The notes: generated by a model not told the origin, from the sequence alone. Shown: positions 4,377 to 42,193, numbered from the stretch's first letter. The stretch is DNA of 64,000 nucleotides from Comamonas serinivorans (GCF_002158865.1 NZ_CP021455.1:1096835-1160834); one strand, 5' to 3'. Translations and numbers: made by a program.

Positions 4377-4406
4377 GGGGAGCCTCCTCGCGGTGTTTTG
4401 ATTCAA

Positions 4407-4459
4407 GGGGGTATGCGCCCATTTCCGTTTAAAGAAAAACGCAAGTGGATGCATACCCC
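4407..4459. repeat. SPR family copy
   Basis: GGGGGTATGCGCCCATTTCCGTTTAAAGAAAAACGCAAGTGGATGCATACCCC. Confidence 0.6.
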
Positions 4460-4617
4460 ATGCATTGCGTGCGGATAAAGGGTGGCGCCATGCCGTCATG
4501 GCCAGCCATCCCGTCCCGGTGCCTCGGCCCCGCGCATGGGCTCAGGCACTTGGCCAGACGCCGACCCTACGGGCCGCCCGCCAACCGCAGACCCCCCATC
4601 GAGGTGGGTGCCGCCGG

Positions 4618-6603
4618 TCACTCGGGTGAGGGCGTCGGATCAGGGTGCCGCCTGCAGCCGTCAGTCGCCGGCTGCAACAGGTCTTGCACGCGTGCGCGCA
4701 TGGTCTCCAGCGTCTGCGCTTCGGGGGGCATGGCCTCGCCCACGCTCAGGCCCACCGGGCTGAAGGTCCCACGCCGGAATGGCTTGGTCATGGCGCCCGT
4801 GGGTTCGATGCGCGAGAAGTAGCTGCCCCAGAGGTTGGTCAGCGCCATGGGCACCACGGGCACGCTCAGGCCGTCGGCGCGCGCCTGCTCCAGGATCTTC
4901 AGCACCCCGCTCTTGAACGCACCCAGCTCGCCGTCGCGCGTGATGGCGCCTTCGGGGAAGATGGCCAGCAGCTCGCCTTCGCGCAGCACCTGGGCGGCTT
5001 CGACGAAGGCGCGCTCGTAGGCCGCGGGGTCGTCGCGTGCGGGGGCGATGGGGATGGCCTTGGCGAGCTTGAACAGCCAGCCCAGCACGGGCACCTTGAA
5101 GATCTGGTGGTCCATGATGAAGCGGATGGGCCGCGGGCTGGCCGCCATCAGCAGCACGGCGTCGATGAAGCTGACGTGGTTGGCGATGAGCACGGCCGGA
5201 CCGTCGGCCGGGATGTGGTCACGCCCGGTGATGCGGAAGCGGTACACCAGCTTGGTGAGCACCCAGGCGTGAAAGCGCAGCCAGTACTCGGGCACCAGGA
5301 AGAAGATGTAGGCCGCCACCAGCGCATTGGCGATGCCGGTGAACAGGAAGATCTGCGGGATGGAGAAGCCGGCCTGCAGCAGCGCGCCCGCGATCACGGC
5401 CGAGGCGATCATGAACAGCGCGTTGAGGATGTTGTTGGCCGCGATGATGCGCGCGCGGTGCGAGGGCCGGGCGCGCAGCTGGATGAGCGCGTACATGGGC
5501 ACGCTGAACAGGCCGGTGAACATCGACATCAGGCCCAGGTCGGCCATCACGCGCCAGTGCGCGCCCTGTTGCAGAAAGCCGCCCACGTCGAACAGGCCAC
5601 TGGCGGGCGGCGCGGGCAGGCTGCGCGTGGCGAAGAACAGGTCGATGGCGAACACCGTCATGCCGATGGCGCCCACGGGCACCAGCCCGATCTCGACCTG
5701 GTGGCCCGACAGCTTTTCGCACAGCAGCGCCCCCACGCCGATGCCGACCGAGAACACGGCCAGCAGCAGCGAGGCGACGTGGGCGTCGCAGTGCAGCACT
5801 TCTTTGGCAAAGGCCGGAAACTGGCTGAGGAACACAGCGCCGAAGAACCACATCCACGAGATGCCCAGCAGCGAGCGGAACACGGCCAGCTGCTCGTGCG
5901 CCAGGCGCAGGTTGCGCCAGGTTTCGGTCACAGGGTTCCAGTTCACCTGCAAGCCGGGGTCGGTGGCCGGCGACACAGGGATGAACTGCGCCGCAAGCCG
6001 CCCCAGCAGGGCCAGCACCACGCACGAGATGCCCACCCATTCGGGCCCCACCTGCGGCACCACCACCAGCACCCCGCCCACCAGCTGGCCCAGCAAGATG
6101 GCGACGAAGGTGCCCATTTCGACCATGCCGTTGCCGCCCGTCAGTTCGCGCTCGGACAGGTGCTGCGGCAGGTAGGCGAACTTCACCGGGCCGAACAGGG
6201 TGGAGTGCAGGCCCATGAGGAAGGTGCACAGCAGCAGCACCGGCACGTTGGCGCTGAAGAAGCCCCAGGCCGCCAGGGCCATGATGGCCACCTCCAGCCA
6301 TTTGACGAAGCGGATCAGCGCGCGCTTTTCCAGCTTGTCGGCCAGCTGGCCGCTGGTGGCCGAGAACACCAGATAGGGCAGGATGAACAGCGCGCCGATC
6401 ACCAGGCCCGCCATGTCGGCCGGCAGCCAGCTCACCTGCAGCATGTAGGTCACCATCACGGTGAACGCGAACTTGAAGAGGTTGTCGTTCGCGGCGCCGG
6501 CAAACTGGGTCCAAAAAAACGGCGCAAAGCGGCGCTGGCCCAGCAAGGCGAACTGCCCGGAGGGCGCTTGGCCGGCCTGGGCCTGGCGGGTCGATTCGGT
6601 CAT
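4618..6603 (-). CDS. MFS lysophospholipid transporter fused to 1-acyl-glycerol-3-phosphate (PlsC-type) acyltransferase domain
   Basis: 661 aa. N-terminal 12-TM MFS region. C-terminal HVSFIDAV...FPEGAITRDG acyltransferase motifs (HX4D, FPEG). ATG confirmed at 6603 (MTESTRQ). Confidence 0.8.
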   Translation of the reverse strand: MTESTRQAQAGQAPSGQFALLGQRRFAPFFWTQFAGAANDNLFKFAFTVMVTYMLQVSWLPADMAGLVIGALFILPYLVFSATSGQLADKLEKRALIRFVKWLEVAIMALAAWGFFSANVPVLLLCTFLMGLHSTLFGPVKFAYLPQHLSERELTGGNGMVEMGTFVAILLGQLVGGVLVVVPQVGPEWVGISCVVLALLGRLAAQFIPVSPATDPGLQVNWNPVTETWRNLRLAHEQLAVFRSLLGISWMWFFGAVFLSQFPAFAKEVLHCDAHVASLLLAVFSVGIGVGALLCEKLSGHQVEIGLVPVGAIGMTVFAIDLFFATRSLPAPPASGLFDVGGFLQQGAHWRVMADLGLMSMFTGLFSVPMYALIQLRARPSHRARIIAANNILNALFMIASAVIAGALLQAGFSIPQIFLFTGIANALVAAYIFFLVPEYWLRFHAWVLTKLVYRFRITGRDHIPADGPAVLIANHVSFIDAVLLMAASPRPIRFIMDHQIFKVPVLGWLFKLAKAIPIAPARDDPAAYERAFVEAAQVLREGELLAIFPEGAITRDGELGAFKSGVLKILEQARADGLSVPVVPMALTNLWGSYFSRIEPTGAMTKPFRRGTFSPVGLSVGEAMPPEAQTLETMRARVQDLLQPATDGCRRHPDPTPSPE

Positions 6604-13159: not shown

Positions 13160-14752
13160 ATGCCCCGTTCGCCCGCTGCTTCCTCAGACGCCGCCCGTCC
13201 GTCCCCTGCGCAGCGGCCCTGGCTGCAAGCCCTGTACGACAACCCCTGGCCCTGGCTGCTGGCCTTTTTGCTGGCCCACGTGGTGTCGCGCGGCGTGATC
13301 TCAACCGGCATGAAATGGGACGAGTCCGAGCAGATTCTCTGGTCGCAGCAGCTGGCCCTGGGCTATGGCGCGCAGCCGCCGCTCTACACCTGGCTGCAGT
13401 GGGCCGTGATCCAGGTGCTGGGGCCGTCGGTGCTGGCGCTGGCGCTGGTCAAGCACGCGGCCATTGGCCTGACCTATGTGCTGGCCTGGCTGGCCGCGCG
13501 GCAGCTGCTCACGGCGCGCGGTGCCTTCTGGGTCGCCAGCGGGCTGCTGCTGATGCCGCCTTTCGGCTGGAACGCGGTGCGCGACCTGACCCACACCGTG
13601 CTCGTCACGGCGATGGCGCTGGGCCTGTGCGGGGCCGTGCTGCGCCTGGTGCAGGCGCCCAGACCGGGCCACTACGCGCTGGTGGGCCTGTTCTGCGGCC
13701 TGGGCATGATGGCCAAGTACAGCTTTGCCCTGAGCATCGGCGCGTTCTTCGTCGCCTGCCTCACGGTGCCGCAGGCGCGGCGCGCCCTGTTTCAGCGCGG
13801 CTGGTGGCTGGCGCCGCTGGTGGGCCTGCTGATCTTCGCGCCCAACGGCTGGTGGGTGCTGAACCATTGGCACGAGGCCACGGCGGCCACCCTGGACAAG
13901 ATGGAGATCTCGCAGCAGGTGTCGGTCTTCACCGGCGCCGCGAACCTGCTGCAGATCACGGCGTCCACGTTGCTGCTGTGGGCCCTGGTGGTGGTGCTGG
14001 CCTTTCGCGGCCAGCTGCGCGCGCCCTTGCCCGCCGACGCCGATGCCCGCTGGCCCTGGCGCAGCTGGGCCTGGCCGCTGCTGGGGCGCTACCTGCTGTT
14101 CGTCGGCCTGGCCATGGTGGCCATGGTCGTGCTGGGCGATGTGAGCAACTTCAAGGAGCGCTGGCTGCTGCCCCTGGTGGCCGTGGTGCCGTTGGCGTTC
14201 TTCGTCTGGCGCCCGTCGCTGCAGGCCGACGACAACCCGCGCGGCGGCCTGTACACCGGGGCGGTGCTGGTGTTCGCGCTGATCTTCTTCGCCATGGCGA
14301 CGGCGCGGCCCTGGGTGGCCGGTGCACGCAACCAGGACAAGCCCGGCGAGGCCGACGAGCTGACTTTTCCGGTGCCCGAGCTGGCGGCCCGGCTGCGCCA
14401 GGCGGGCTACGACGGGCGTGGCGACATCGTGGGCGCCGACCACATGCTGGCGGCCATGATGCGGTCCGAGTTTCCCCAGGTGCAGGCGCGCGGCTGCGCG
14501 CCTTTGCCAGGTCGCACGCCGGCGGCCTGCGTGGCCCAGGCCCTGCAGCAGGCGCGTGCCACAGGGCGGGGCCTGCTGCTGGTGTCGCGTGCCCGTGACG
14601 CGGGCTGGTGGGCCGCAGTATTGCCCCAGACTGGTTACAAAGAGTACGAGAGCATGGCCATACCTTCTTCCAAAATGCCTGTTGACGCGGCACCGATGCC
14701 GTTCCATTTCGTGTGGGTGCCCCCGCAGACCGTGCCGGGGGCGCAGCCATGA
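13160..14752 (+). CDS. GT39/GT-C family glycosyltransferase (ArnT/RgtA-D-like; lipid A/core glycosylation)
   Basis: Around 530 aa polytopic membrane protein with PMT_2/ArnT-like N-terminus ([17 protein letters not shown]...[12 protein letters not shown]). Divergent from the GT2 gene. Confidence 0.75.
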
Positions 14753-27512: not shown

Positions 27513-27883
27513 GGCGAGGTCCTTGGCAAAAACCGACGGCTGACGAGGGACGGGCACGGCGGGCATGCCGTGCGCGGGTTCACTGCCCGGCCAGCTTTGC
27601 AAGCCTGGGCGGCCGAGGCTGTGCTTTAGGCGTCAGCGCAGGCCGCAGATGCCGTGCCTGGCCGGTGGCGAACGCCCGCCTGCGGCCGCGGAGCGCGCGG
27701 CGGCCAGGCGGACTAAAATCACCGGCTTCGCACCAAGGAGCGCTGCAGTTGGCCCAGGCCTTGCCTGGCCGGGCCTGTCAGGCTTGGTGCGGAACGTGTC
27801 GCGCCGGCCACGCCTGCGCTGGCGCGTGGTGTCAACGGCGCTCACCTGTTGTGTTGCTTGTCGGTTTTTTGCAGGTGAGTGTG

Positions 27884-31420: not shown

Positions 31421-32581
31421 TCACCCTGGCTGGCGCAGCGTCACCAGGCCGTTCAGCACCTGATCGAGCCCGCCGACGACGGAGATCTTGTCGATGCGCT
31501 CGGCCACGCGCTCCAGCGTTTCCAGCTCCTTCATGCGCAGGGCGACGGGGTTGCCCTCCATCACCTTGGCGGTGTTCAACAGCGAACGCGTGGCCGCCGT
31601 TTCCTCGCGGCGGCGGATCACGTTGGCCTGGGCCGACTTTTCGGCCTCCACGACCTGGGCGAGGATGGTCTTCATCTCGCCGGGCAGGATGATGTCTTTC
31701 ACGCCCACGCTGTCCAGCGCCACGCCCGATTCAGCCAGGCGCTCGCGCACCTGGGCCAGCACGGCGCCATCGATGGCGGCCTTGTTTTCCAGCAACGCAT
31801 CCAGGTTCTGTTCGCCCACGGCGGCGCGCAGGCCGAATTGCAGCTCGCGGTAGACGTGGTCGGCTGGCTTGGGCATGCGCGCCAGCGCGCGCTGCACGTC
31901 GGTGAAGTGCCACACGGCCGAGAGGTTCAGTCGCAGGCCCACCTTGTCACGGGTCAGGATTTCCTGGCCATTCACCTCGGCGATCTGCGCTCGCAGGTCC
32001 ACGGTGCTCACGCTCACCTGACGGTTGAAGCGCCAGAAGCCATGCACGCCTGCCGGCAGCAGCGCTTGCATCTGGCCGTCCAGCGTGAGCACGCCAGCGT
32101 GGAACTCGGGCACCTGCACCAGCAGCACGCCGTCCAGGCCGCGCACGGCGCGCGGGCGCAGTGCCACGCTGTGCAGCTTGGCCAGCAACTCGGCGGGCAG
32201 GCGCGCGTCGGCGCTCAGGTCGACCACGTCCACGCGCTGTTCGCGCAGGCCGCGCCAGAACAGCTGGCGCGTGGACGGCGGCAGGATCTCGACCAGCACG
32301 CCGTCTTCGTGGCGCAGGCCGACCTCGGTTTCGCCCAGCACCACCTGCACGAACTCGCGGGCCAGCAGGGCCGGCTCGTGGGCTACGAAGTAGTCGGCCA
32401 GCTCGTGCTCAAAGCGCGCCGGCGCGTCCGGTTTGCCCAGCGAAAAGCGTTCCAGCGTCACATCGTCCAGGCCTGTGAACACGCGGTGCTTGCCCGGGCC
32501 AAACAGGCCGGCGAAATCGCCATCGCGCAGCAGCAGCGCGCGTTCGTGCTTTTTGACGGTGAAAATGGTGAATCCCAGCAT
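31421..32581 (-). CDS. SPFH/band-7 (slipin-like) domain protein
   Basis: C-terminal half carries the SPFH signature (VGVKDIILPGEMKTILAQVVEAEKSAQANVIRRREETAAT). ATG at 32581 with GGGAGAG RBS. Confidence 0.75.
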   Translation of the reverse strand: MLGFTIFTVKKHERALLLRDGDFAGLFGPGKHRVFTGLDDVTLERFSLGKPDAPARFEHELADYFVAHEPALLAREFVQVVLGETEVGLRHEDGVLVEILPPSTRQLFWRGLREQRVDVVDLSADARLPAELLAKLHSVALRPRAVRGLDGVLLVQVPEFHAGVLTLDGQMQALLPAGVHGFWRFNRQVSVSTVDLRAQIAEVNGQEILTRDKVGLRLNLSAVWHFTDVQRALARMPKPADHVYRELQFGLRAAVGEQNLDALLENKAAIDGAVLAQVRERLAESGVALDSVGVKDIILPGEMKTILAQVVEAEKSAQANVIRRREETAATRSLLNTAKVMEGNPVALRMKELETLERVAERIDKISVVGGLDQVLNGLVTLRQPG

Positions 32582-32609
32582 GTTGCTCTCCCGGTGTGTT
32601 GTTGGTCAT

Positions 32610-32659
32610 GGGTATGGCCGTGTCGTCATTGATGATCAGTCGCAAAAATTGCCATACCC
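32610..32659. repeat. SPR family copy (in 5' leader of SPFH gene)
   Basis: GGGTATGGCCGTGTCGTCATTGATGATCAGTCGCAAAAATTGCCATACCC. Confidence 0.55.
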
Positions 32660-32930
32660 AAGTTCTGTTCAAGGTGCCCAGCTCGCACAGGCTGCGGGCG
32701 ATCGGCGGGGTGCCGGCGCGCGTGGTCGTGCTCCCGGTTGTGTTGCTGGCACTGGCCTGGGCCAGGTGCACGGCCGCACAACCGCGATGGCGGCTGGCGC
32801 GCCAGGCACCGAAGCGCGAGGCACAGGCAGCCTGTGCGGGCAAGGTGCGCCGGGCGGCAGGACCAAGCCATTCGCCAAGCGCCGCCTTGCCAGGGCGGGT
32901 GGGGCTTTCGCCCCCATCCAAGCGGTGCAA

Positions 32931-33045
32931 GCACCGCGGCAATGGGCGGGAATCGAACCCGCAGCCGCCACCGAAGTCGCGGTGTTCAACCATGAACAAG
33001 TCTTGGACCGAAACCAAGCGTCACCTCAGCCCATCCGCGGCATAC
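32931..33045 (-). ncRNA. second tRNA-like structured element (canonical T-arm GCGGG-TTCGATT-CCCGC, anticodon-like hairpin CTTGG-TTTCGGT-CCAAG, extra hairpins, closing CCGCGG stem)
   Basis: Read on the minus strand. Lies about 80 nt downstream of the minus-strand sigma-54 promoter. No CCA or canonical acceptor, so it is not a standard tRNA gene. Confidence 0.45.
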
Positions 33046-33134
33046 CGCCCACCCAAGAACGGGTCTGGCGGGCGGCACCGGGCCGCATGCATGCGGCACC
33101 TCGTGCGGATGACTGCGTCCGACAGCAGGTGTCT

Positions 33135-33150
33135 TGCAGACGCCGTGCCA
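33135..33150 (-). promoter_or_regulatory. sigma-54 promoter on minus strand (TGGCAC-GGCGT-CTGCA), divergent from rtcR
   Basis: Reverse complement of plus-strand tgcagacgccgtgcca. Points toward the second tRNA-like element and the SPFH operon. Confidence 0.6.
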
Positions 33151-33280
33151 ACTTCCGGCCCAGGCCGTTTCCGCGTGGAGGCCGCTGCGCCAATGCCTTG
33201 ATTTGCAAGCGGTTCGGTGCCCCTGGCCCGCTGACCTGCGTGTCAGCGGGCGATCGTCGGTGTTTGCTAGACTGAGGACC

Positions 33281-33312
33281 CTTGATTCATCCGGCGCGTT
33301 CTTGATTCAGCC
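33281..33312 (+). promoter_or_regulatory. two direct copies of CTTGATTCA(T/G)CC upstream of rtcR ATG: candidate RtcR UAS / autoregulatory site
   Basis: cttgattcatcc at 33281-92 and cttgattcagcc at 33301-12. The same motif recurs upstream of the two plus-strand sigma-54 promoters. Confidence 0.4.
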
Positions 33313-34965
33313 ATGAAACCCATTCACGTCATCACCTTCCTGGGCACCCAGCTGGACAGCGGCAACGGTGCCGGCCGCTGGGAGAAGTGGCGGCCCACCG
33401 TGGCGCTGACCCAGCACGAGGACATGGAGGTCGCGCGGCTGGACCTGCTGCTGACCGGGCCCAGCCACCGGGCGCTGGCCGAGCGCGTGCGCGCCGACAT
33501 CGGCACGGTGTCGCCCGCCACCGAGGTCGTGCTGCACGAGTTGGCCGTGGACGATCCCTGGGACTTCGACGTCGTCTACACGCAGCTGTTCGATTGGGCC
33601 CGCGCGCAGGCCTTCGATACCGAGGCCGCGCAGTACTGGGCGCACATCACCACCGGCACGCATGTGGCGCAGATCTGCCTGTTCCTGCTGACCGAGTCGC
33701 GCGTGCTGCCCGGGGTGCTGTGCCAGACCTCGCCGCCCAAGCGGCAGCGCGAGGGCGCGGCCGGTGCCTACACGCTGATCGACCTCGACCTCTCGCGCTA
33801 CGACGCCATCGCCCAGCGCCATGCGGCCGACCAGCGCGATGCAGTGGCCTTCCTGAAAAGCGGCATCGCCACGCGCAATGCGCGCTTCAACGCGCTCATC
33901 GACGAGGTCGAGCGCGTGGCCGTGCGCTCCACCGCGCCGGTGCTGTTCGTGGGGCCCACGGGCGCGGGCAAGTCCTTCCTGGCCCGGCGCATGCACGAGC
34001 TGAAGAAATCGCGCCACCAGATCAACGGCGCCTTCGTCGAAGTCAACTGCGCCACGCTGCGTGGCGACGGCGCGGCCTCGACGCTGTTCGGCCACAAGCG
34101 CGGTGCTTTCACCGGCGCCGCCACCGACCGGCCCGGCCTGCTGCGCGCCGCCGATGGTGGGCTGCTGTTCCTCGACGAAATCGGCGAGCTGGGGGCCGAC
34201 GAGCAGGCCATGCTGCTCATGGCCATCGAAGACAAGCGCTTCTACCCCCTGGGTTCGGACCGCGAGGTGACCAGCGACTTTCAGCTGGTGGCGGGCACCA
34301 ACCGCGACCTGCGCGCCGAGGTCGCCGCGGGGCGGTTTCGCGAAGACCTGTTCTCGCGCATCAACCTGTGGACCTACGAGCTGCCTGGCCTGGCGGGCCG
34401 GCCTGAGGACATCGAACCCAACGTCGACTACCTGCTCACCCGCCATGCGCAAGCCTCGCGCCGCGCGGCCCGCTTCAACGTCGAAGCGCGCCGCGCCTAC
34501 CTGCGCTTTGCGCAAAGCGGCGAAGCGCTGTGGCGCGGCAATTTCCGCGACCTGTATGCCAGCGTGACGCGCCTGGCGACCCTGGCCGAGGGCGGGCGCA
34601 TCACCGAGCCGCTGGTGGTGGCTGAGATCAAACGGCTGCGCTGGATGTGGACGCGCGACAGCGCGGTGGCGGCGCCCGGCGCGCGCGCCTCGGGGGGCTC
34701 GCCGGGGGCGATGGCGGTCGATGCGGCGAGCGTGGACCTGGCCGACTTCTACGACGAAGCGGCCCTGGAGCAGATCGACCTGTTCGACCGCGTGCAGCTG
34801 CAGGGCGTCATCGCGGTGTGCCAGCGCTCGCGCACGCTGTCGGACGCGGGGCGCCAGCTGTACCAGGCCTCGCGGGCGCAACGCGCGGCGTTGAACGATT
34901 CGGACCGCCTGCGCAAGTACCTGGCCAAGTTCAACCTGAGCTGGGACCGCGTCAGCACACGATGA
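33313..34965 (+). CDS. rtcR: sigma-54-dependent transcriptional regulator RtcR (N-terminal CARF-like domain + AAA+ sigma-54 activator + C-terminal HTH)
   Basis: Walker A GPTGAGKS, GAFTGA sigma-54 contact motif, RtcR-specific N-terminal domain (VITFLGTQLD...WRPTVAL), C-terminal HTH. Confidence 0.9.
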   Translation: MKPIHVITFLGTQLDSGNGAGRWEKWRPTVALTQHEDMEVARLDLLLTGPSHRALAERVRADIGTVSPATEVVLHELAVDDPWDFDVVYTQLFDWARAQAFDTEAAQYWAHITTGTHVAQICLFLLTESRVLPGVLCQTSPPKRQREGAAGAYTLIDLDLSRYDAIAQRHAADQRDAVAFLKSGIATRNARFNALIDEVERVAVRSTAPVLFVGPTGAGKSFLARRMHELKKSRHQINGAFVEVNCATLRGDGAASTLFGHKRGAFTGAATDRPGLLRAADGGLLFLDEIGELGADEQAMLLMAIEDKRFYPLGSDREVTSDFQLVAGTNRDLRAEVAAGRFREDLFSRINLWTYELPGLAGRPEDIEPNVDYLLTRHAQASRRAARFNVEARRAYLRFAQSGEALWRGNFRDLYASVTRLATLAEGGRITEPLVVAEIKRLRWMWTRDSAVAAPGARASGGSPGAMAVDAASVDLADFYDEAALEQIDLFDRVQLQGVIAVCQRSRTLSDAGRQLYQASRAQRAALNDSDRLRKYLAKFNLSWDRVSTR

Positions 34966-34966
34966 T

Positions 34967-35019
34967 GGGGTATGGTGTGAATGCCGTTTTCCATGAAACG
35001 GAAATGGCCTGATACTGCC
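34967..35019. repeat. SPR family copy (2 nt after rtcR stop)
   Basis: GGGGTATGGTGTGAATGCCGTTTTCCATGAAACGGAAATGGCCTGATACTGCC. Confidence 0.6.
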
Positions 35020-35133
35020 AAGGCTAAGCATTCCACAATGGGATGATCAACAGCGCGCCCGCCGGCTTGCACGGTGGGGCGCATGCAGCGGCTGGCCCAA
35101 GGCCGGGTGCACGACATGGAGAGGGAGACGCAC

Positions 35134-35802
35134 ATGGCGCAGTACATCGAGGTCATTGGACAGGCCAGCGTGAGCGAAGTGGCCGTGGAGCAGCGCGTGG
35201 CGCTGACGGTGTCGCACCGCGGCAAGGGCGGTGGCATGTCGGACAAGGTGGTGGCGCACAAGGCCACGCAGCAGCGTGAGCGGGTGATCGCCACGCTGCT
35301 GGCCCACGGCATGCGGGAGCACGAATTGCATGAGGGCGGCATGGACAGCGGCACCTGGCACTTCAAGCGCAAGCGCGAGGTGCACCACAGCCACCGCATC
35401 CTGCTGATCTGCGAGGACGACGCGCGCCTGTTTGCGGCCCTCGAGGCCCTGGCGCCGCTGCAGGACGAGGGCGAGCTTGACTTGCAACTGGACATGCTGG
35501 ACGCCCGCTACGAGGTGCCGGCCGGTGCGCTGAGCGGGGCGCAGCAGGCGGCGGTGGCGCATGCCCGTGAGCATGCGAATGGCCTGGCGCAGGCTGCCGG
35601 CGTGGCGCTGGGCGCGGTGGTGCAGGTGCAAGAGCTGGCGCCGGCGCGGGAGCGTTCGGGTGCCTATGGCGAGTCCTGGTATGGCTTGGCCGCCGCAGGC
35701 GGCGCGGCTGCGGCACCGGCCATGACCCTCTTGGCGAGTAACCAGCGCACGCGCACCTTGAGCTACCGCGTGCGCTTTGCGCTGCAGCGGGCTGTGCCCT
35801 GA
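35134..35802 (+). CDS. SIMPL/DUF541-like protein without signal peptide
   Basis: IEVIGQASVSEVAVEQRVALTV repeat-like start. RBS GGAGAGGGAG. Confidence 0.45.
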   Translation: MAQYIEVIGQASVSEVAVEQRVALTVSHRGKGGGMSDKVVAHKATQQRERVIATLLAHGMREHELHEGGMDSGTWHFKRKREVHHSHRILLICEDDARLFAALEALAPLQDEGELDLQLDMLDARYEVPAGALSGAQQAAVAHAREHANGLAQAAGVALGAVVQVQELAPARERSGAYGESWYGLAAAGGAAAAPAMTLLASNQRTRTLSYRVRFALQRAVP

Positions 35803-35882
35803 CGCGCGTCGTTCGCCGCAACGCCTGGGCCGCGGTGGCCTGAATGTCGGTCCGACCGTGCACTGGGCAGGACGTGGGGCCA

Positions 35883-35917
35883 GTGAATCGCCTGCAACGC
35901 CCCTGCAGACGATTCAT
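35883..35917 (+). promoter_or_regulatory. inverted repeat TGAATCGCCTGCA-N7-TGCAGACGATTCA, candidate enhancer (UAS) about 110-140 bp upstream of the sigma-54 promoter at 36026
   Basis: 13-bp arms. Contains GATTCA as in the CTTGATTCAT motif. Confidence 0.4.
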
Positions 35918-36025
35918 GGGCGGGCGTAGAGTTCGCATCGAAAGCGATACAGTGGGATCGTGTTCGGCGGTCATGGTGGCGTGCAGCCCTGCTGTCGCCC
36001 TGGGGTGAAGCGGGATGGGCCGAAC

Positions 36026-36041
36026 TGGCACGGCCGTTGCG
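36026..36041 (+). promoter_or_regulatory. sigma-54 (-24/-12) promoter TGGCAC-GGCCG-TTGC
   Basis: Perfect match to TGGCAC-N5-TTGC. Lies 224 bp downstream of the SIMPL-like gene and immediately upstream of the tRNA-like element. Confidence 0.7.
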
Positions 36042-36058
36042 AAGGATGAGGTGAACGT

Positions 36059-36146
36059 GGGCCCAGGTCTGGGGTGGCGCAAAGCGAGCGCGTCGGACTT
36101 GAATCCGAAGGGTGCTGGTGCAAGTCCAGCCCCCAGACCTGGGCCC
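36059..36146 (+). ncRNA. tRNA-like (Y-RNA-like) structured element with 16-bp acceptor-like stem
   Basis: GGGCCCAGGTCTGGGG (36059-74) pairs perfectly with CCCCAGACCTGGGCCC (36131-46). Interior folds as TG / D-arm GCGC-AAAGCGA-GCGC / G / anticodon-like TCGGA-CTTGAA-TCCGA / variable AGGGT / T-arm GCTGG-TGCAAGT-CCAGC. No CCA. Confidence 0.6.
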
Positions 36147-36422
36147 GCGAAACCCGGGGGCGCGACGGCGCGAGGCAGGCCTTGACGCGGCGGCCGTGTC
36201 GGCAAGGGTGCAGCGAGAAGCGGCTACCAGGCCGGTTGCCACGCATCGCAGCCCGTCGGCCAGCCCGACCGGCAGGGGATGAGGTCAGGTGTGCAACGGT
36301 CTGGCGCAGTTCAAGGAGAACGCCCGACCATGCATCGGGAAGGTGCTGGACAAGCCAGCCGCCAGACCGTTGCGCATGGGCCAGTCCCCGTCCCGATCCA
36401 CACGAACACAGGGAGAGCGGCC

Positions 36423-39320
36423 ATGGGCCAGCACGACGAAGAGCACTCACCGGACGCCGGTGAGCACCCGGTGCCGCCGGCGCATGCGGCATCCGGGCTT
36501 GCCCAGGCGAACCCGGGCTGGGCAGCCGGCCAGCTTGCACGCGCCCGTGCGGCTTTGGCACAGGCACAGGTACAGCGGGACCCGTCAGGGCCCGACGCGG
36601 CCGGCGCTGCGTCATCCGCGGATACCGACGCTGCAGGCCACGCCGTGGCGCGTGCGCTGGCCAAGGTGAATGCCTGGCGCCAGGCCTTGGCCGGCATGGC
36701 CAGTGGCGAGCTGCAGGTGGGGTCGCGCACGCCGCTGCGCAACGTGGCGGCCTGGCTCACGCCGAATGTGTTGCACGGCGGATTCGCCTCGGGCCAGCTG
36801 ATGGCCGGGGGGCGCGCGCAAGCACACGAGACGCACTGGCTGGCGCAACTGGCGGCCGGTCAGCCGCTGGGCAGCACGCCGACCGACTGTGCCCGGATGG
36901 CCACGCTGGCGGCACAGCCCGTGGACCGCAGCACGCTGCCCCAGAAGCTGGACCGCACGCCGCTGAACGACTGGTTCCTGACCGAGGCGGGCCTGCAGCA
37001 GCTGATGCAGTGGCTGGACGACGGCCGCTGGCGCATCGCCGTGCCCGAGGAGGGCGCCTTGCTGGTGGTGGCCTGGCTGCTGAGGCAGGGGCATGACACC
37101 TCGGCGGCCCGCCTGTTGGACACCCTGTCGCCCTACTGGCACCGCGTTCGCTTTTACCCGCAGCCCGCTGCGACGCCCATGCCGGCGCTCGACCGCGTGA
37201 GCCTGCGCAGCGCGCAGGACGTGATGGCGCAGTTGAACCAGCTGCAGACGCCGCCCGCGGTGCTGGCCCAGCACCAAGCCATCCACGTGTGGCGCCCCTT
37301 GCTCGACGAGCTGGTGCTGCTGTGGCTGCAGGCCGTGCCCGGCGCGCTGCACGGCCCTGACGCTGCCGCGGCCCATGGCGAATCCGGGCGAGGTGCCGAC
37401 GGCGCCGTGACGGATGCGCTGCCGCGCCTGCGTGCCGGCACGCGCGAGGCCGAAGGCGGCTTGCCCCTGGCCGAGCCCGACGCCGACTGGCGGCAGCAGG
37501 CGGCGGCCTGGCGCCTGCGGGCGCGCGAGGCCGAGGCGCAGCACACGCGCAGCCGGGCGCACCGCAAGCCCGGCTCGCACGTGGCGCAGTTGTGGGCCAT
37601 GCTGGACCAGGTGCTGCAAGGTCAGGCCCTGAGCGAGGCACAGCGCCGCCGGCTGCGCTTTGTGCTGGCGTGCCAGGTCAGCGCCCATGGCGTGCCAGGC
37701 GATGCGAGGCACCACACCTGGCGCGCCGCGCAACGGGCGCAGACCGACACCGTGTGGCGCGCCCACTGGGCGTACGCACTGGCCGCGCGCGTGCAGGCGC
37801 AGGGCCCCTACGCGCTGGGCGATGGCCTGCCGGATCTGGACACCGCGCTGCAAGCTGCCACGGCGCAAGAGGCACAACAACATGCGCACCTGCCCGAAGG
37901 CACCGTGGTCTGGCCCAGCCTGCGCCGCAAGCTGCGCCGCGCCCACTTGGCCACCGTGCCGCAGCTGGTGCAAGCCGGCATCGTGCCGTCGAGCGAGGTG
38001 CTGGCCAGCGTGCTGCCCGGCACCACGGGCGCACAGCTGGCGCGCACCATGCCCGATGCGGCCAGCGCGCGGCTGCTGGGCGCGCTGTGGCGTGCGTTTC
38101 GCGGGCGACGCTCGGTGCTGCTGCTGAACCACGAGTCGCAGGTGCGCTTTCACGAGCTGCCCTGGGTGCTGCGCTTGCAGCAGCACGCCTGCGTGCCGGC
38201 GACGGCCGCCGGGACCGAGGGCGATTCGGCACATCGCTGGGACATGGCCGGCCTGGCGCGCAGCCAGGCGTTGGCGCAGCTGGATGCGGCCGCGCGCCTG
38301 GCGCTGACGCAATTCCCGCAATCGGCCTTCCCGAACCCGCTGCTGTGGGAGCTTCGCGCGCTGGCCGAGCAGGGTGGCTGGCAGCCGCCGTGGGTCGAAG
38401 ACATCGCGGCCGACATCTTCATGGGCAGCTTTGGGCCCAAGTTCGGGCAGGCCGTGCACGACGCGCTGCCCTGGTTGCAGGGCAGCCTGTATGCGCAGCA
38501 TTTCCAGCTCGACCTGGAGGCGCTGCGCCTGGCCATGGCGCCGGCCGTGGCCTGCCACGCGGCCTTTCAGCGTTACGCCGAAACGCCAGCGGGCTCACCC
38601 GGCAACCCCGCGGCCAAGCGCGAACAACAGGCCTTGCTGCAGCGCTATCACGCGGCGCCCGACCTGCTGGTGGCGCACCTGCGTGCGCGCACGGGCTGGT
38701 CGGCCGACGCCCGCGGCGTGGGCGCGAATGGCGCCGTCATCGAGCAGATGGGCCTGGTCAGCACGGCCAACTTCGCGCCGCTGGCGCAGCGCTTTGGCTG
38801 GGGCGTGGCCGGTGCCGGTTTGCGCGATGCCACGGCCCAGGCGCGCGAGCTCCAGGGGTGGGCGCAGGCCGCACGCACGGGCTTCGAGCGGCTGTGCGCG
38901 GGGCTGGACCTGGGCGTGCGCGAAGCCGGCGCCATGCTGGACAAGCCGCCAACCCAGATCCAGGCGACAAACCCGGCGGATGCCCATGCGGCAGCGACAG
39001 AAGCCCAGGCCGCCGACCGCCTGCTGGCCGAGCGCGTGCGCCGGGCCGCCACCAGCTGGCGCCAGGTCGTGCTGCTGCTGAGCCTGCTGCCCGCCGAGCA
39101 GCAGCGCGCCAACCTGCTGGGCATGCAGCGCCACCTCGCGGCCTGTGACACCCCCGCCAGCCGGGGCGTGACGCGCGCCCTGGCGCCCCAGCTGGCCGAC
39201 CTGATGGCCTGTGTGCAAGGCCAGGCGCGCGACGCCGGTCGGCCACCGTTCCACGGCTGGACCCAGCCAGGGCAGCGGGGCGTGCTGTTCACCCTGCGCC
39301 AGGGCCTGAAGGCCGGGTGA
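36423..39320 (+). CDS. large (about 965 aa) Ala/Leu/Arg/Trp-rich protein of unknown function in the rtc locus
   Basis: Uninterrupted frame with strong GC3 bias throughout. The antisense 648-aa ORF is rejected. Possible starts at 36279, 36330 and 36423; 36423 has the best RBS (AGGGAGAG). No catalytic motif recognised. Confidence 0.6.
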   Translation: MGQHDEEHSPDAGEHPVPPAHAASGLAQANPGWAAGQLARARAALAQAQVQRDPSGPDAAGAASSADTDAAGHAVARALAKVNAWRQALAGMASGELQVGSRTPLRNVAAWLTPNVLHGGFASGQLMAGGRAQAHETHWLAQLAAGQPLGSTPTDCARMATLAAQPVDRSTLPQKLDRTPLNDWFLTEAGLQQLMQWLDDGRWRIAVPEEGALLVVAWLLRQGHDTSAARLLDTLSPYWHRVRFYPQPAATPMPALDRVSLRSAQDVMAQLNQLQTPPAVLAQHQAIHVWRPLLDELVLLWLQAVPGALHGPDAAAAHGESGRGADGAVTDALPRLRAGTREAEGGLPLAEPDADWRQQAAAWRLRAREAEAQHTRSRAHRKPGSHVAQLWAMLDQVLQGQALSEAQRRRLRFVLACQVSAHGVPGDARHHTWRAAQRAQTDTVWRAHWAYALAARVQAQGPYALGDGLPDLDTALQAATAQEAQQHAHLPEGTVVWPSLRRKLRRAHLATVPQLVQAGIVPSSEVLASVLPGTTGAQLARTMPDAASARLLGALWRAFRGRRSVLLLNHESQVRFHELPWVLRLQQHACVPATAAGTEGDSAHRWDMAGLARSQALAQLDAAARLALTQFPQSAFPNPLLWELRALAEQGGWQPPWVEDIAADIFMGSFGPKFGQAVHDALPWLQGSLYAQHFQLDLEALRLAMAPAVACHAAFQRYAETPAGSPGNPAAKREQQALLQRYHAAPDLLVAHLRARTGWSADARGVGANGAVIEQMGLVSTANFAPLAQRFGWGVAGAGLRDATAQARELQGWAQAARTGFERLCAGLDLGVREAGAMLDKPPTQIQATNPADAHAAATEAQAADRLLAERVRRAATSWRQVVLLLSLLPAEQQRANLLGMQRHLAACDTPASRGVTRALAPQLADLMACVQGQARDAGRPPFHGWTQPGQRGVLFTLRQGLKAG

Positions 39321-39710
39321 GCAGGTCGGGTGAGGTCAGGTGAAGCCAGCGGGGCCATGGGGCCCCATCTTCCAGGTTGGCCCGAATGGTGACCGTGGGT
39401 CTGGGTGCCGGTGCTGCCGCCCCAGGCGTTCGCTGTGGGCGCCTGGCGGACTGGCGCCGAGGAACGGAGGAGCTTGCGCGACAATCCGGCATCCGGTCCG
39501 GGCGAGGCTCGCTAGGACATGGCCATGGCGCGCGGCGGTCAGCACGCGGCGGTGTCGGCCCCGCAGCCGCGCGATCCCGGTGGTCGGGTGCAAGTGCCCT
39601 GTCGGCTTGCGTTCCACGCCAACAGGCCTGCTGCCGTGCCTCGTGCCATGTCAACCGTTGCTTGACGGTCGGCGGGCCCCGTGCCCACGCCGTGTTGTTC
39701 AGAAGTACCC

Positions 39711-40454
39711 ATGCCTTTACGCATCGACGAAGCCATCACCCAGCTGGATCACGGCTGGCTCAGCCATTTGAAATCGCAGGGTTACGGCGGCGATGCCTTG
39801 CGCCAGGCGATCGACCTGGTGCTGTACGCCCAACAGCAGGCGGCGGCGCGCAACAGCGCCGAGTTCAAGGCCGCCATCGCGCGCGTCAACCACCTGGTGG
39901 GGGCGGGCATCGCGTGTGACAACAACGGCGACTACCTGTACACGGCCGAGTGGCGCGACCCGGCTTGCGCCGGGCTGGGCTTCGCCATCGAATACGCGGC
40001 CGACCCGGCCAGCTGGCGGGCCGAGTTCCGCATGCCCGGCTGCTGGCCGCACACCGTGGACAACCTCGACATCACCGACACCCGCGCTGTGGACCACGAC
40101 TTTGCGCTCTGGCTGGCGCGCGCCAGTGCCCGCCATTTCACGCACCTGATCGAACGCCAGCTGCCCGAAGGCGAAGCACTGCGCGCGCCCTGTACGGCGG
40201 CCGTGCGGGCCGGCACCTGGGCCGAATTCGTGTGCCTGCACCCACTGCAACCCGTGGCCCGCCTGGGGCACGAGCGGCTGGAGCAGGCCGCCTGGTCGGC
40301 CCAATACCCCAGTGCCGCCCAGCGCGAGTTGCAGGCCCGCTTCGATGTGCAGAGCGCCTTGCTGCTGCGCTTGATCGTGGTTCAGCAGGCAGCATGGGCT
40401 TGGCATGAAGAGTATGGCGACAATCGCGATGACGATTCAACGGGAAGGCATTGA
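39711..40454 (+). CDS. hypothetical protein (248 aa)
   Basis: Good GC3. C-terminus and stop are supplied by an inserted palindromic repeat unit. Confidence 0.45.
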   Translation: MPLRIDEAITQLDHGWLSHLKSQGYGGDALRQAIDLVLYAQQQAAARNSAEFKAAIARVNHLVGAGIACDNNGDYLYTAEWRDPACAGLGFAIEYAADPASWRAEFRMPGCWPHTVDNLDITDTRAVDHDFALWLARASARHFTHLIERQLPEGEALRAPCTAAVRAGTWAEFVCLHPLQPVARLGHERLEQAAWSAQYPSAAQRELQARFDVQSALLLRLIVVQQAAWAWHEEYGDNRDDDSTGRH

Positions 40455-40462
40455 TACTCCAT
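40408..40462. repeat. SPR family copy (overlaps 3' end of the 248-aa ORF)
   Basis: GAAGAGTATGGCGACAATCGCGATGACGATTCAACGGGAAGGCATTGATACTCCAT. Confidence 0.55.
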
Positions 40463-40814
40463 TTGATGTGGCGCTTGCTGAGGGCTGCTTGCCCGACACC
40501 GGAAGGCTGGCGTCGACGCAGGGACATGACGCGTGGCCAGCGGTGCATGGGCTCGCCAGCCGCCCGCACAGCGCCCCCAACCCGCTGACTGGGCGTCCTG
40601 ATGCAGCAGGCCTGGCTCGACCTGCCCGTGCTCTTTCGCCTGCATGCGCAGGCGCGTGGCCAACAGGTGGCGCAGCCCGAGCGGGCCGATGGGGTGTTCG
40701 CCATCCAGGGCACGGCCAGCGCGCAGCCTCACACCGTCCGAGACGGACCGCATCCGGGCCGATTGCCTGTGAAGGCGGGCTTGCAAGGGGCGCTGCATGG
40801 ATCGCTGGCGCGCT

Positions 40815-40828
40815 GGATGAATCAAGCC
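40815..40828 (+). promoter_or_regulatory. GGATGAATCAAGCC (reverse complement GGCTTGATTCATCC), candidate UAS about 110 bp upstream of the rtcA sigma-54 promoter
   Basis: Exact reverse complement of the CTTGATTCATCC copy at 33281. Confidence 0.4.
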
Positions 40829-40934
40829 AGTTTGGCTTGCGGTGGCTGAGCCGTGGCGAGGCGCAGGCGCCCTCGACGCCAAGTGCTTGATCCGGCAAGG
40901 GTTTGCGCGGCTCGCCTGTTGATTTGGCGGGGCC

Positions 40935-40950
40935 TGGCACGCCGCGTGCA
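40935..40950 (+). promoter_or_regulatory. sigma-54 promoter TGGCAC-GCCGC-GTGCA upstream of rtcA
   Basis: GG/GC spacing correct, one mismatch at -14. About 38 bp upstream of the rtcA ATG. Confidence 0.6.
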
Positions 40951-40987: not shown

Positions 40988-42193
40988 ATGCCAACCGACG
41001 ACCAGGTGGAGGCGAAGCCGCGTCACCGTGACCCAGCTCGCACGGCCACCGCCGCAGACACCAAAAGCGTGACCGGCGCAGCGCAGACGGGCCGTGGCGC
41101 AGCCATCGAGATCGATGGCTCGCAGGGCGAGGGCGGCGGGCAGATCCTGCGCACGGCGCTGGCCTTGTCCATGATCACCGGCCAGCCGCTGCACCTGCGC
41201 GCCATCCGCGCCAAGCGGCCCAAGCCCGGGCTCATGCGCCAGCACCTGATGTGCGTGCAGGCGGCCGCGCAGGTCAGCGGGGCCCACATCAGCGGGGCCG
41301 AGCTGGGGGCCACCGAGTTGCGCTTCGCGCCGGGCCCGGTGCGGGCGAGCGCCTACGAATTTGCCATGGCCAGCGCAGGCAGCTGCATGCTGGTGCTGCA
41401 GACCGTGCTGCCGGCGTTGATGCTGGCCGATGCCCCCAGCACGCTGGTGCTGCGGGGCGGCACGCACAACCCCATGGCGCCCAGCTTCCACTTTGTGCGC
41501 GATGCCTTTGCGCCGCTGGTGCAGCGCCTGGGCGCCGGCCTGACGCTGCAGCTGCAGCGGCTGGGCTTTTACCCCGCAGGCGGTGGCGAGGTCACGGCCA
41601 CCATCACGCCTGCGGCCCGCCTGACCCCGTTCGACCTGACCGAGCGTGGCGAGCTGCAGCAGGGCGATGCTCTGTGCCTGACGCCGGGGCTGTCGGGGTC
41701 GATCGCGCGCCGCGAGCTGACGGCGCTGGGCCAGGCCATGGGCTGGGGCGAGGACCGCTTGCGCTTTGGCGAGGCCAGGCAGCACGAGGGGCCGGGCAAT
41801 GCCTTGATCGCCCGCCTGCGCTACGCCCACGTGACCGAGGTGTTCGTCGAGCTTGGGGCCCGCAACCTGTCGTCGGAGCAGGTGGCCGGCAAGCTGGTGC
41901 AGGCCATCCGGGCGTTTCAACGCCGGCCAGGTGCCGCGGTGGGCCCACACTTGGCCGACCAGCTGGTGCTGCTGCAGGCCCTGGCCGTGTGGCAGGCCGG
42001 ACGGACCGGCAGCCAGGCGGATGCGCCCCACGCCGATGTGCCCCAGGCGGATGTGCCGCAAGCACGCTTCTCGTGCAGCGAGGTGACCGAGCACTTGCGC
42101 ACCAACTGCGTGGTGATCGAACGCTTTCTGCCCGTGCGCTGCACGCTGACCCAGGGCCCTGTGTCCCGGGTGACGGTGCGCTGGGCGGGGTGA
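40988..42193 (+). CDS. rtcA: RNA 3'-terminal phosphate cyclase
   Basis: IEIDGSQGEGGGQILRTALALSMITGQP, GSAGSC and FYPAGGGEV RtcA signature blocks. About 37-aa N-terminal extension and an internal ADVPQADVPQ duplication. RBS GGGAG at 40977. Confidence 0.85.
   Translation: MPTDDQVEAKPRHRDPARTATAADTKSVTGAAQTGRGAAIEIDGSQGEGGGQILRTALALSMITGQPLHLRAIRAKRPKPGLMRQHLMCVQAAAQVSGAHISGAELGATELRFAPGPVRASAYEFAMASAGSCMLVLQTVLPALMLADAPSTLVLRGGTHNPMAPSFHFVRDAFAPLVQRLGAGLTLQLQRLGFYPAGGGEVTATITPAARLTPFDLTERGELQQGDALCLTPGLSGSIARRELTALGQAMGWGEDRLRFGEARQHEGPGNALIARLRYAHVTEVFVELGARNLSSEQVAGKLVQAIRAFQRRPGAAVGPHLADQLVLLQALAVWQAGRTGSQADAPHADVPQADVPQARFSCSEVTEHLRTNCVVIERFLPVRCTLTQGPVSRVTVRWAG

Follow-up and report, generated by a model that had tools for sequence, protein, structure and literature searches.

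In bacteria, the RNA-repair (Rtc/Rsr) response to damaged tRNA, to toxins and to antibiotics that target the ribosome is under the control of RtcR, and the signal that RtcR perceives is now understood. In PspF- and NtrC-type systems, the sites of the activator overlap the promoter or leader of the divergently transcribed activator gene, which results in negative autoregulation. Enhancers of this type consist of tandem activator sites located 80-150 bp upstream of a sigma-54 promoter, with looping assisted by integration host factor (IHF), as established for bacterial enhancer-binding proteins (Bush & Dixon 2012). Here we analyse a 64-kb stretch of the Comamonas serinivorans genome (NZ_CP021455.1:1096835-1160834, hereafter the window), in which TGAATCAAG boxes (CTTGATTCA on the other strand) found upstream of sigma-54 promoters next to rtcR and rtcA probably constitute an enhancer, or upstream activating sequence (UAS), bound by the C-terminal helix-turn-helix (HTH) domain of RtcR.

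The DNA site of RtcR is so far represented only by one motif from high-throughput SELEX (HT-SELEX) and one in-silico profile. The former, TTATCC-N4-GGATAA (NTTATCCNNNNGGATAAN), was determined for Pseudomonas aeruginosa RtcR (Wang et al. 2021, PMC8041468, supplementary file 9), and the latter was proposed for Pectobacterium in the SigmoID report (2016; PMC4888284). The RtcR enhancer was entered as 'NK' (not known) in a 2016 Salmonella review (PMC4987338), and the 'rtcBA UAS plus IHF site' of E. coli has been used in a hybrid promoter (Kotta-Loizou et al. 2022), the accessible text of which does not contain the UAS sequence (PMC9650030). No footprint, electrophoretic mobility shift or chromatin immunoprecipitation study of an RtcR site was found in literature searches. 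The statement of an earlier, sequence-only reading of this locus that the RtcR site has not been well defined is thus only partly correct, given the 2021 motif and the 2016 profile.

Paired boxes upstream of the rtcR-divergent and rtcA promoters

The rtcR gene (33313..34965, plus strand) encodes a protein with CARF, sigma-54 AAA+ and C-terminal HTH domains (Pfam RtcR, 6e-76; Sigma54_activat, 5e-49), that is, an activator of the kind that works from enhancers, and it is the sole sigma-54 activator detected at the locus in a Pfam scan. The pattern TGGCAC-N6-TGC has exactly three matches in the whole window. The first, P1 (TGGCACGGCGTCTGC; 33136..33150, minus strand), is predicted to drive a leader of ~555 nt followed by a slipin/SPFH gene and a 206-aa open reading frame (ORF). 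The second, P2 (TGGCACGGCCGTTGC, a perfect consensus; 36026..36040, plus strand), would drive a tRNA-like RNA, an 891-aa ORF and a 257-aa ORF, and the third, P3 (TGGCACGCCGCGTGC; 40935..40949, plus strand), rtcA.

The three sequences that had been singled out as a shared motif are all present where they were placed: CTTGATTCATCC at 33281-33292, CTTGATTCAGCC at 33301-33312, directly followed by the rtcR ATG at 33313, and GGATGAATCAAGCC at 40815-40828. When both strands of the window were searched, exact CTTGATTCA was found at these three sites only, where 0.17 copies are expected, and none of 100 dinucleotide shuffles reached three copies. Read toward each promoter the motif is TGAATCAAG, so that the orientation toward P1 and P3 is the same, and all copies lie 107-160 bp upstream of a TGGCAC-N6-TGC promoter. 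If the T of TGGCAC is taken as reference, the motif is 131 and 151 bp away at P1 and 107 bp away at P3, with a separate element 110-142 bp upstream of P2. In terms of the first base of the box, the P1-distal box (33301..33309, minus strand) begins at -159 and ends 3 bp before the rtcR ATG, and the P1-proximal box (33281..33289, minus strand) begins at -139, inside the rtcR 5' leader. At P3, the proximal box (40818..40826, plus strand) begins at -117 and is accompanied by a degenerate distal copy, TGGATCGCT, at -137 (40798..40806, plus strand). Together with the P2 element at -142 to -110, all of these fall within roughly 80-200 bp, and the enhancer-like spacing proposed in the sequence-only reading was thus borne out.

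At both P1 and P3 the two boxes are 20 bp apart, on the same face of the DNA, around a CGCGC core; at P1 the spacer core is GGCGCG (33293..33298), and a CGCGC core is likewise seen in the P3 element and in the Rsr element of a related locus (L041). A repeat search independently returned direct repeats of 12 nt at P1 and 17 nt at P3, both with 20-bp spacing, i.e. at least two sites in helical phase, the P3-distal box being contained in the 17-nt repeat. The corresponding bipartite pattern, TGRATM-N14-TGRATM, matches twice in the window (0.02 expected), at the P1 boxes and at the P3 boxes (40798-40823).

Between the boxes and P1 there is an IHF consensus site, AATCAAGGCATTG (33191..33203, minus strand; 41-53 bp upstream of the -24 element), which is the only exact match to WATCAANNNNTTR in 64 kb (0.07 expected) and has equivalents in relatives. 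P3 is preceded by an IHF-like site with one mismatch to the consensus, GATCAAGCACTTG (40880..40892, minus strand; 43-55 bp upstream of the -24 element). The P3 IHF block CAAGTGCTTG is invariant in an alignment of three lineages, and L040 carries a perfect AATCAAGCACTTG. No IHF site was found between P2 and its upstream element. Conceivably, the boxes themselves could be extra sites for IHF or for another nucleoid protein shaping promoter architecture, rather than sites for RtcR. Every TGAATCAAG box does contain AATCAA, which fits the IHF core WATCAA and weighs against RtcR as the ligand, and the genuine IHF sites, such as AATCAAGGCATTG at P1 and AATCAATGGCTTA in L041, are similar to it. However, none of the three boxes has the TTR that should follow 4 nt downstream, and the site at 33191-33203 is the one full consensus of the window; the boxes, at -109 to -159, are not where IHF usually binds, and a consensus site already takes up that position; relatives with the canonical arrangement carry GGATAA there, which is not IHF-like; and where the box occurs as a dyad its variants change symmetrically in both arms. 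We consider it very unlikely that the boxes are nucleoid-protein sites.

A GGATAA box in canonical rtcR loci

Two sets of related loci (designated by L numbers) were compared with the window. The distant set, with RtcR identities of 57-73 %, comprises 22 GTDB loci, 8 metagenome loci, E. coli, Variovorax and Acidovorax. All have a canonical layout, in which rtcR is divergent from a sigma-54 promoter leading to rtcB-rtcA, which Rsr or slipin genes may precede. A divergent sigma-54 promoter occupies the P1-equivalent position in 22 of the 22 GTDB relatives, and in each distant locus an IHF consensus precedes the -24 element by about 30-55 bp. CTTGATTCA with at most one mismatch was not found in the rtcR/sigma-54 intergenic region of 21 of these 22 relatives. 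Its sole exact copy, in L014, is an IHF site, and literal conservation of CTTGATTCA had to be rejected; since the literal motif is missing from these relatives, the spelling given in the sequence-only reading is specific to the clade of C. serinivorans.

What the distant loci have at this position is a different box. Unbiased enumeration of hexamers in the -170 to -75 windows returned GATAAA as the top hexamer, present in 11 of 16 non-redundant loci (p < 0.001 against shuffles). The box, TGGATAAA, is found at -136 (L013, L014, L015), -116 (L014, L018), -138 (L021) and -134 (L001), and in Variovorax paradoxus the stretch from about -133 to -116 is a perfect dyad, TGGATA-AAAGGC-TATCCA. Both TGGATAAA and TGGATA-N6-TATCCA fit the half-site GGATAA of the SELEX motif. 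The reduced dyad GATA-N6-TATC matches three times in 45 loci, in each case in an rtcR-promoter intergenic region and including that of E. coli K-12, where GATAATGAAATATC lies between rtcB and rtcR (L023, 3233-3246), at a distance of about 99-112 bp upstream of the -24 element of rtcBA, as the single match in a 7-kb locus (0.04 expected). We regard GATAATGAAATATC as a candidate for the E. coli RtcR UAS.

In the window, none of the four copies of TTATCC/GGATAA is near the three promoters, and the N6 dyad (TGRATM-N6-KATYCA type) has no match even with one mismatch. The window core TGAATC and the canonical TGGATA agree at 4 of 6 positions.

The boxes in the closest relatives

The second set consists of L024-L031 and L040-L043, which have RtcR identities of 82-87 % or are syntenic for the 891-aa gene. 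Here, TGAATCAA or TGAATC-N6-GATTCA is used in place of the canonical box. At the rtcR leader the layout is constant: TAGACT, as the -10 element, is followed by CTTGATTCATCTGGCGCGTCTTTGATTCAAGC and this by the ATG, with both TTGAT copies and the GGCGCG spacer core invariant in an alignment of six leaders. The same layout is kept even where rtcR follows a Glt-symporter gene and has no adjacent sigma-54 promoter. No consensus RNA structure was obtained from the six leader sequences with RNAalifold, and an RNA-level role of the leader was rejected on these grounds.

The boxes also recur at sigma-54 promoters. The Rsr promoter of L041 has TGAATCAAA-AGCGCGCCGAA-TGAATCAAG at -136/-116, together with a perfect IHF site, and the rtcA promoter of the same locus has TGAATCGGA-CACGCGCTCAA-TGGATAGAA at -134/-114. 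The Rsr-side promoter of L030 has TGAATCAAT at -112, and the TGrAyCG..CGCGCT block of the P3-distal box is kept in L041 and L040, which possess P3 orthologues upstream of rtcA (at 16366 and 6867, respectively). Promoters orthologous to P2 are present in L040, L041, L042 and L043; that of L043 has the dyad TGAATC-AATTGC-GATTCA at -125, and that of L041 has TGCATC-GATGGC-GATTCA.

Unbiased enumeration in 12 sigma-54 upstream windows of this subclade again singled out the box: GATTCA/TGAATC was the top hexamer, in 8 of 12 windows (binomial p = 2e-9), it never occurred in more than 5 of 12 windows in 3000 dinucleotide shuffles, and only 43 of the 3000 contained some hexamer, whichever it was, in 8 of 12 windows, although the windows are partly orthologous, so that these figures overstate independence and lend the RtcR assignment less than they appear to. 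GAATCGC recurs in P2- and P3-type upstream windows. The bipartite pattern TGRATM-N14-TGRATM has nine matches in 43 related loci (639 kb; 0.29 expected), all of them in rtcR leaders, in the canonical enhancer of L014 or in the L041 Rsr and rtcA enhancers; this 20-bp pattern is thus confined to RtcR-linked sites in about 0.7 Mb. The TGRATM-N6-KATYCA dyad has only two matches in 45 loci, namely L043 P2 and the V. paradoxus enhancer.

The conserved core is therefore TGAATC(A/G) with the CGCGC spacer, not CTTGATTCATCC as such, and its conservation is limited to the clade with RtcR identities of at least 82 %, TGGATAAA replacing it elsewhere. In a motif search across related rtcR loci, the check suggested by the sequence-only reading, TGAATC and the bipartite pattern proved to be enriched among the closest relatives, and at RtcR identities of 73 % or less the literal motif was missing. 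As for further members of the clade, a metagenome scan with RtcR gave only loci at 73 % identity or less, and a search for slipin homologues gave none.

Some resemblance between P1 and P3 could in principle stem from copying. Their box regions have 17 of 18 bases in common, and the string CTTGATTCATCCnGCGCG occurs twice in the window (0.00 expected), as might be the case if the motif were a chance recurrence or the remnant of a duplicated promoter fragment without any function. Yet the similarity stops at 18 nt: when the regions upstream of P1, P2 and P3 were aligned locally, this was the only match, which rules out a duplicated promoter cassette. Moreover, the position and orientation of the boxes are kept across lineages in which the flanking intergenic DNA has diverged. 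Because of this conservation and of the shuffles given above (in which the 9-mer is expected 0.17 times and the bipartite pattern 0.02 times), chance or neutral duplication is excluded for practical purposes, and a motif without function is scarcely credible.

A more serious alternative concerns rtcR itself. Conservation alone points to an extended -10 element of a sigma-70 promoter of rtcR (TGcTAGACT; 33265..33273, plus strand); TAGACT is kept in the closest relatives and is TAGAAT in more distant ones, the sigma-70 consensus scan called no rtcR promoter, and no -35 element is present. The P1 boxes lie between this -10 and the ATG, for which reason rtcR is likely to be repressed by its own product from these boxes, and such autoregulation probably coexists with activation from the sigma-54 promoter. 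It could be argued that the twin TTGAT..GGCGCG..TTGAT element serves chiefly as operator for the sigma-70 promoter and leader of rtcR, where RtcR would bind for autorepression only or another repressor would bind, and is not needed for sigma-54 activation. In five closer relatives (L024-L029 and L031) the element directly precedes the rtcR ATG with no sigma-54 promoter near, and its position just downstream of the conserved TAGACT is invariant. Against this, the element also stands away from any rtcR, upstream of the Rsr and rtcA promoters in L041 (about -136/-116) and of the rtcA promoter in the window (-137/-117), its orientation toward the sigma-54 promoter is constant, and no gene for another regulator is conserved at these loci. 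Given the copies at rtcA and Rsr promoters far from rtcR, a pure operator role is insufficient, and we regard it as unlikely.

Covariation with the RtcR helix-turn-helix

The change in the box is accompanied by a change in RtcR. Its HTH is otherwise almost invariant, and reads RAQRAA(L/I)ND(S/A)DRL in the clade versus R..R(S/T)VVNDADRL elsewhere. In the window (34870-34900; RtcR residues ~520-530) the variant comprises NDSDRL, together with AAL where other proteins have (S/T)VV. Among the 120 best homologues, NDSDRL is found in five, which are exactly the closest relatives, and NDADRL in the other 115. The HTH variants co-occur with the type of motif: the core shifts from TGGATA to TGAATC, and in the dyad form both arms change. 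This shift probably tracks substitutions that adjoin the recognition helix or lie within it (VV to AL/AI; NDADRL to NDSDRL), the residues of NDSDRL and AAL being candidates for determinants of specificity.

Taken further, these observations allow a tentative proposal, which we put at somewhat short of even. A small Comamonadaceae clade, consisting of C. serinivorans and a few uncultured relatives, may have switched RtcR specificity from TGGATA to TGAATC (in direct-repeat and dyad enhancers) along with an HTH change from RSVV-NDADRL to RAAL-NDSDRL, and its regulon may have been rewired, with three sigma-54 promoters driving the slipin operon, a YrlA-like tRNA-like RNA plus the 891-aa family, and rtcA by itself, rtcB being missing from the locus.

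The element upstream of P2

The third promoter is the least clear case. An inverted repeat upstream of P2 had been noted and indeed exists, with arms at 35884-35896 and 35904-35916 that are complementary at 12 of 13 positions, its previously given limits being off by one base. As a palindrome, TGAATCGCCTGCA-N7-TGCAGACGATTCA (35884..35916) spans -142 to -110, and a repeat search extends it to 35879-35896 and 35904-35921 (18-nt arms, 83 %). It does not contain CTTGATTCAT, and what it has in common with the other sites is only TGAATC/GATTCA(T), a hexamer with 18 copies in the window against about 8 expected, five of them in the three upstream regions. A second, proximal element, the degenerate dyad GCATCGAAAGCGATAC (35935..35950; -91 to -76), agrees with the dyad consensus at 9 of 12 positions, and its orthologues in the alignment are TGCATC-N6-GATTCA (L041) and TGAATC-N6-GATTCA (L043). 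The distal palindrome, by the same alignment, is not conserved in that form in either locus.

For the distal palindrome a different origin is conceivable, although on balance doubtful: the stretch 35879-35921 could be the 3' stem-loop of an rtcR-SIMPL transcript, acting as terminator or stabiliser, with arms that resemble the box by coincidence. It lies 77 nt past the stop codon of the SIMPL-domain gene and folds as RNA into a stable hairpin (-27.3 kcal/mol, z = -2.3), the syntenic L041 locus lacks both the SIMPL gene and the palindrome, and the half-sites, 27 bp apart centre to centre, would be ill-suited to a dimer. On the other hand, the hairpin is followed by GGGCGGGCG and not by the U-tract of an intrinsic terminator (an outcome with which a 3' hairpin lacking a U-tract is compatible), GAATCGC/CGATTC recurs in the P2- and P3-type upstream windows of relatives, and the element occupies -142 to -110 of a perfect sigma-54 promoter. 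The palindrome may therefore be an RtcR site, if a weak or atypical one, or else it may form the 3' hairpin of the rtcR-SIMPL transcript.

Accordingly, the idea of one enhancer motif shared by all three promoters is supported for P1 and P3 by position, enrichment, the bipartite pattern and the match of the canonical box to the SELEX half-site, and is weak for P2, the weakest part of the claim, where TGAATC alone is shared.

The boxes as a probable lineage-specific RtcR enhancer

Conservation extends to position, to geometry, to the placement beside the start of rtcR and to the IHF site in between, and on this basis the boxes are read as an RtcR enhancer. The most economical and most likely interpretation of the comparison is that TGAATCAAG is a lineage-specific spelling of that enhancer. 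Several observations weigh against it. The half-site is anchored in a SELEX experiment in which a near-identical motif was given for an unrelated factor, PA4508 (PMC8041468), so that the specificity of the RtcR motif is uncertain, and the N4 dyad arrangement of that motif is unlike the arrangements found here. There is no clear TGGATAAA in the canonical loci L003, L019, L045 and L037. The twin boxes at the rtcR leader of L024-L029 and L031 have no sigma-54 promoter within about 260 bp and hence are not a classical proximal UAS there, and the Rsr promoter of L024 has only a degenerate version of the boxes. Upstream of P2, no box matches at 7 or more of 8 positions. Finally, the link between HTH change and motif type amounts to a single evolutionary event.

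On the RtcR-enhancer interpretation, RtcR dimers would occupy the boxes, and tRNA fragments ending in a 2',3'-cyclic phosphate would bind the CARF domain, upon which RtcR would oligomerise. IHF would bend the DNA and the AAA+ ring would remodel the sigma-54 RNA polymerase, leading to activation of the slipin operon from P1, of rtcA from P3 and probably of the operon for the tRNA-like RNA and the 891-aa protein from P2. Occupancy of the same boxes at P1 would probably repress rtcR, as negative autoregulation.

This makes the recognition sequence of RtcR, and a possible switch in its specificity, directly testable. Candidate enhancers defined by position are available for the clade (TGAATCAAG-N11-TGAATCAAG), for canonical loci (TGGATAAA and TGGATA-N6-TATCCA) and for E. 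coli (GATAATGAAATATC), and the pair of protein and DNA variants offers a natural case of covariation for mapping the recognition code. The predicted RtcR regulon of C. serinivorans would extend beyond rtcBA to the slipin operon and to an operon of a Y-RNA-like RNA and unknown proteins.

Gene content of the locus and other features

The window derives from C. serinivorans, its RtcR, 891-aa protein and slipin each being 100 % identical to annotated proteins of this species; genes were assigned with Pfam and a frame plot of GC content at third codon positions. The first coding gene of the P1 operon is that for the slipin/SPFH protein (31421..32581, minus strand; Pfam Band_7, 1e-25), which is 86 % identical to the Xenophilus protein preceding rtcB-rtcA in L001, and the 206-aa ORF follows it on the same strand. 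Downstream of rtcR is the SIMPL-domain gene (35134-35802, plus strand). The P2 operon contains the large ORF annotated as 891 aa (CCO03_04750; 36279-39320, plus strand), without a known domain, and the 257-aa ORF (39681-40454, plus strand), for which no match was found. The 891-aa ORF has no sequence match in Pfam, NCBIfam or PDB and only 38 detectable homologues, with distant ones in Myxococcus and Promicromonospora; in L040, L041 and L043 its gene is syntenic with rtcR, the sigma-54 promoter and rtcA. The rtcA gene for RNA 3'-terminal phosphate cyclase (40988-42193, plus strand; Pfam RTC, 5e-74) encodes a protein with 43 % identity to E. coli RtcA (tblastn). It stands alone behind its own promoter, P3, and rtcB was not found within the 64-kb window. 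No gene for Rsr (Ro60) is present in the window either; the relatives L024, L041 and L044 encode Rsr.

The first product of P2 would be a tRNA-like RNA, whose tRNA-like domain (36068..36138, plus strand) is enclosed in a 16-bp stem (about 36056-36150). The domain scores 52.8 bits with the Rfam tRNA model and is called 'tRNA-???' by ARAGORN, and the region folds with -76.5 kcal/mol (z = -4.6, window positions 36040-36175). This architecture resembles that of the bacterial Y RNA YrlA; a permissive-threshold Rfam scan of the P1 and P2 leaders returned no Y-RNA family and the tRNA model only. The P1 leader, ~555 nt of non-coding sequence between P1 and the slipin gene (32582-33136, minus strand), has a T-arm-like GCGGGTTCGATTCCCGC around 32946-32962 and a weak partial match to the tmRNA/tRNA clan (E = 0.3), and a gap of ~570 nt in L001 is similar to it. 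The leader may contain a second tRNA-like or Y-like RNA.

A fourth sigma-54 promoter is present in relatives and lies upstream of a ~730-aa gene (L040, 4330-4485; L043, 4700-4861; L041, ~13850-14000). It is preceded by a conserved element, GGTGGCCATGTGGGTCCTTCCTTCT...GCTGCA..TGCAGCGTTTTTT, that has the appearance of a small, structured RNA ending in a terminator; neither this element nor the ~730-aa gene occurs in the window. Elsewhere in the window, a near-palindromic, box-like TTTTGATTCAAGG at 4395-4465 adjoins an inverted repeat, GGGGTATGCG...GCATACCCC, with no sigma-54 promoter close by, and similar GGGTATGCG..GCATACCC elements occur upstream of rtcR in L030 and L041. The 4395-4465 element is probably a repeat of the repetitive extragenic palindrome type. 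At the Rfam gathering threshold, an SAH riboswitch (48 bits; 27729-27850, plus strand) and the Burkholderia small RNA Bcj11 (69 bits; 5794-5915, minus strand) were detected, both unrelated to the boxes.

Comparison with known systems

With the enhancer of E. coli rtcBA (Genschik 1998), the P1 region has in common the divergent arrangement of rtcR and a sigma-54 promoter, an IHF site and a UAS (at P1 a candidate) adjoining the start of rtcR. In E. coli a single promoter drives rtcBA; the window contains three promoters, an rtcA that stands alone and, across its 64 kb, no rtcB. This also sets it apart from the relatives with RtcR identities of 57-73 %, every one of which has rtcB-rtcA under the divergent promoter. 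With respect to PspF and NtrC enhancers, the tandem sites, the IHF site and the overlap with the rtcR leader are alike, autoregulation of rtcR being a prediction from that overlap. The mode of control differs, in that RtcR is governed by a CARF domain sensing damaged tRNA rather than by a partner protein or phosphorylation. From an IHF site (WATCAANNNNTTR), with which it shares AATCAA, the box differs by the missing TTR, by its distance and by the existence of separate, genuine IHF sites.

The closest counterpart is the canonical RtcR box. Two of its six core bases differ (TGGATA versus TGAATC), the CGCGC spacer core is found in this clade only, TTATCC/GGATAA is absent near the window promoters, and the N4 arrangement of the SELEX motif does not occur in the window. 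The regulator family is nonetheless the same, as are the positions at -136/-116 from the -24 element, the placement just before the rtcR ATG with an IHF site in between, and the geometry of either a 20-bp direct repeat, as in the window, or an N6 dyad, as in the relatives L043 and L041 and not in the window. The element is thus a variant of an already known kind rather than a new kind of element.

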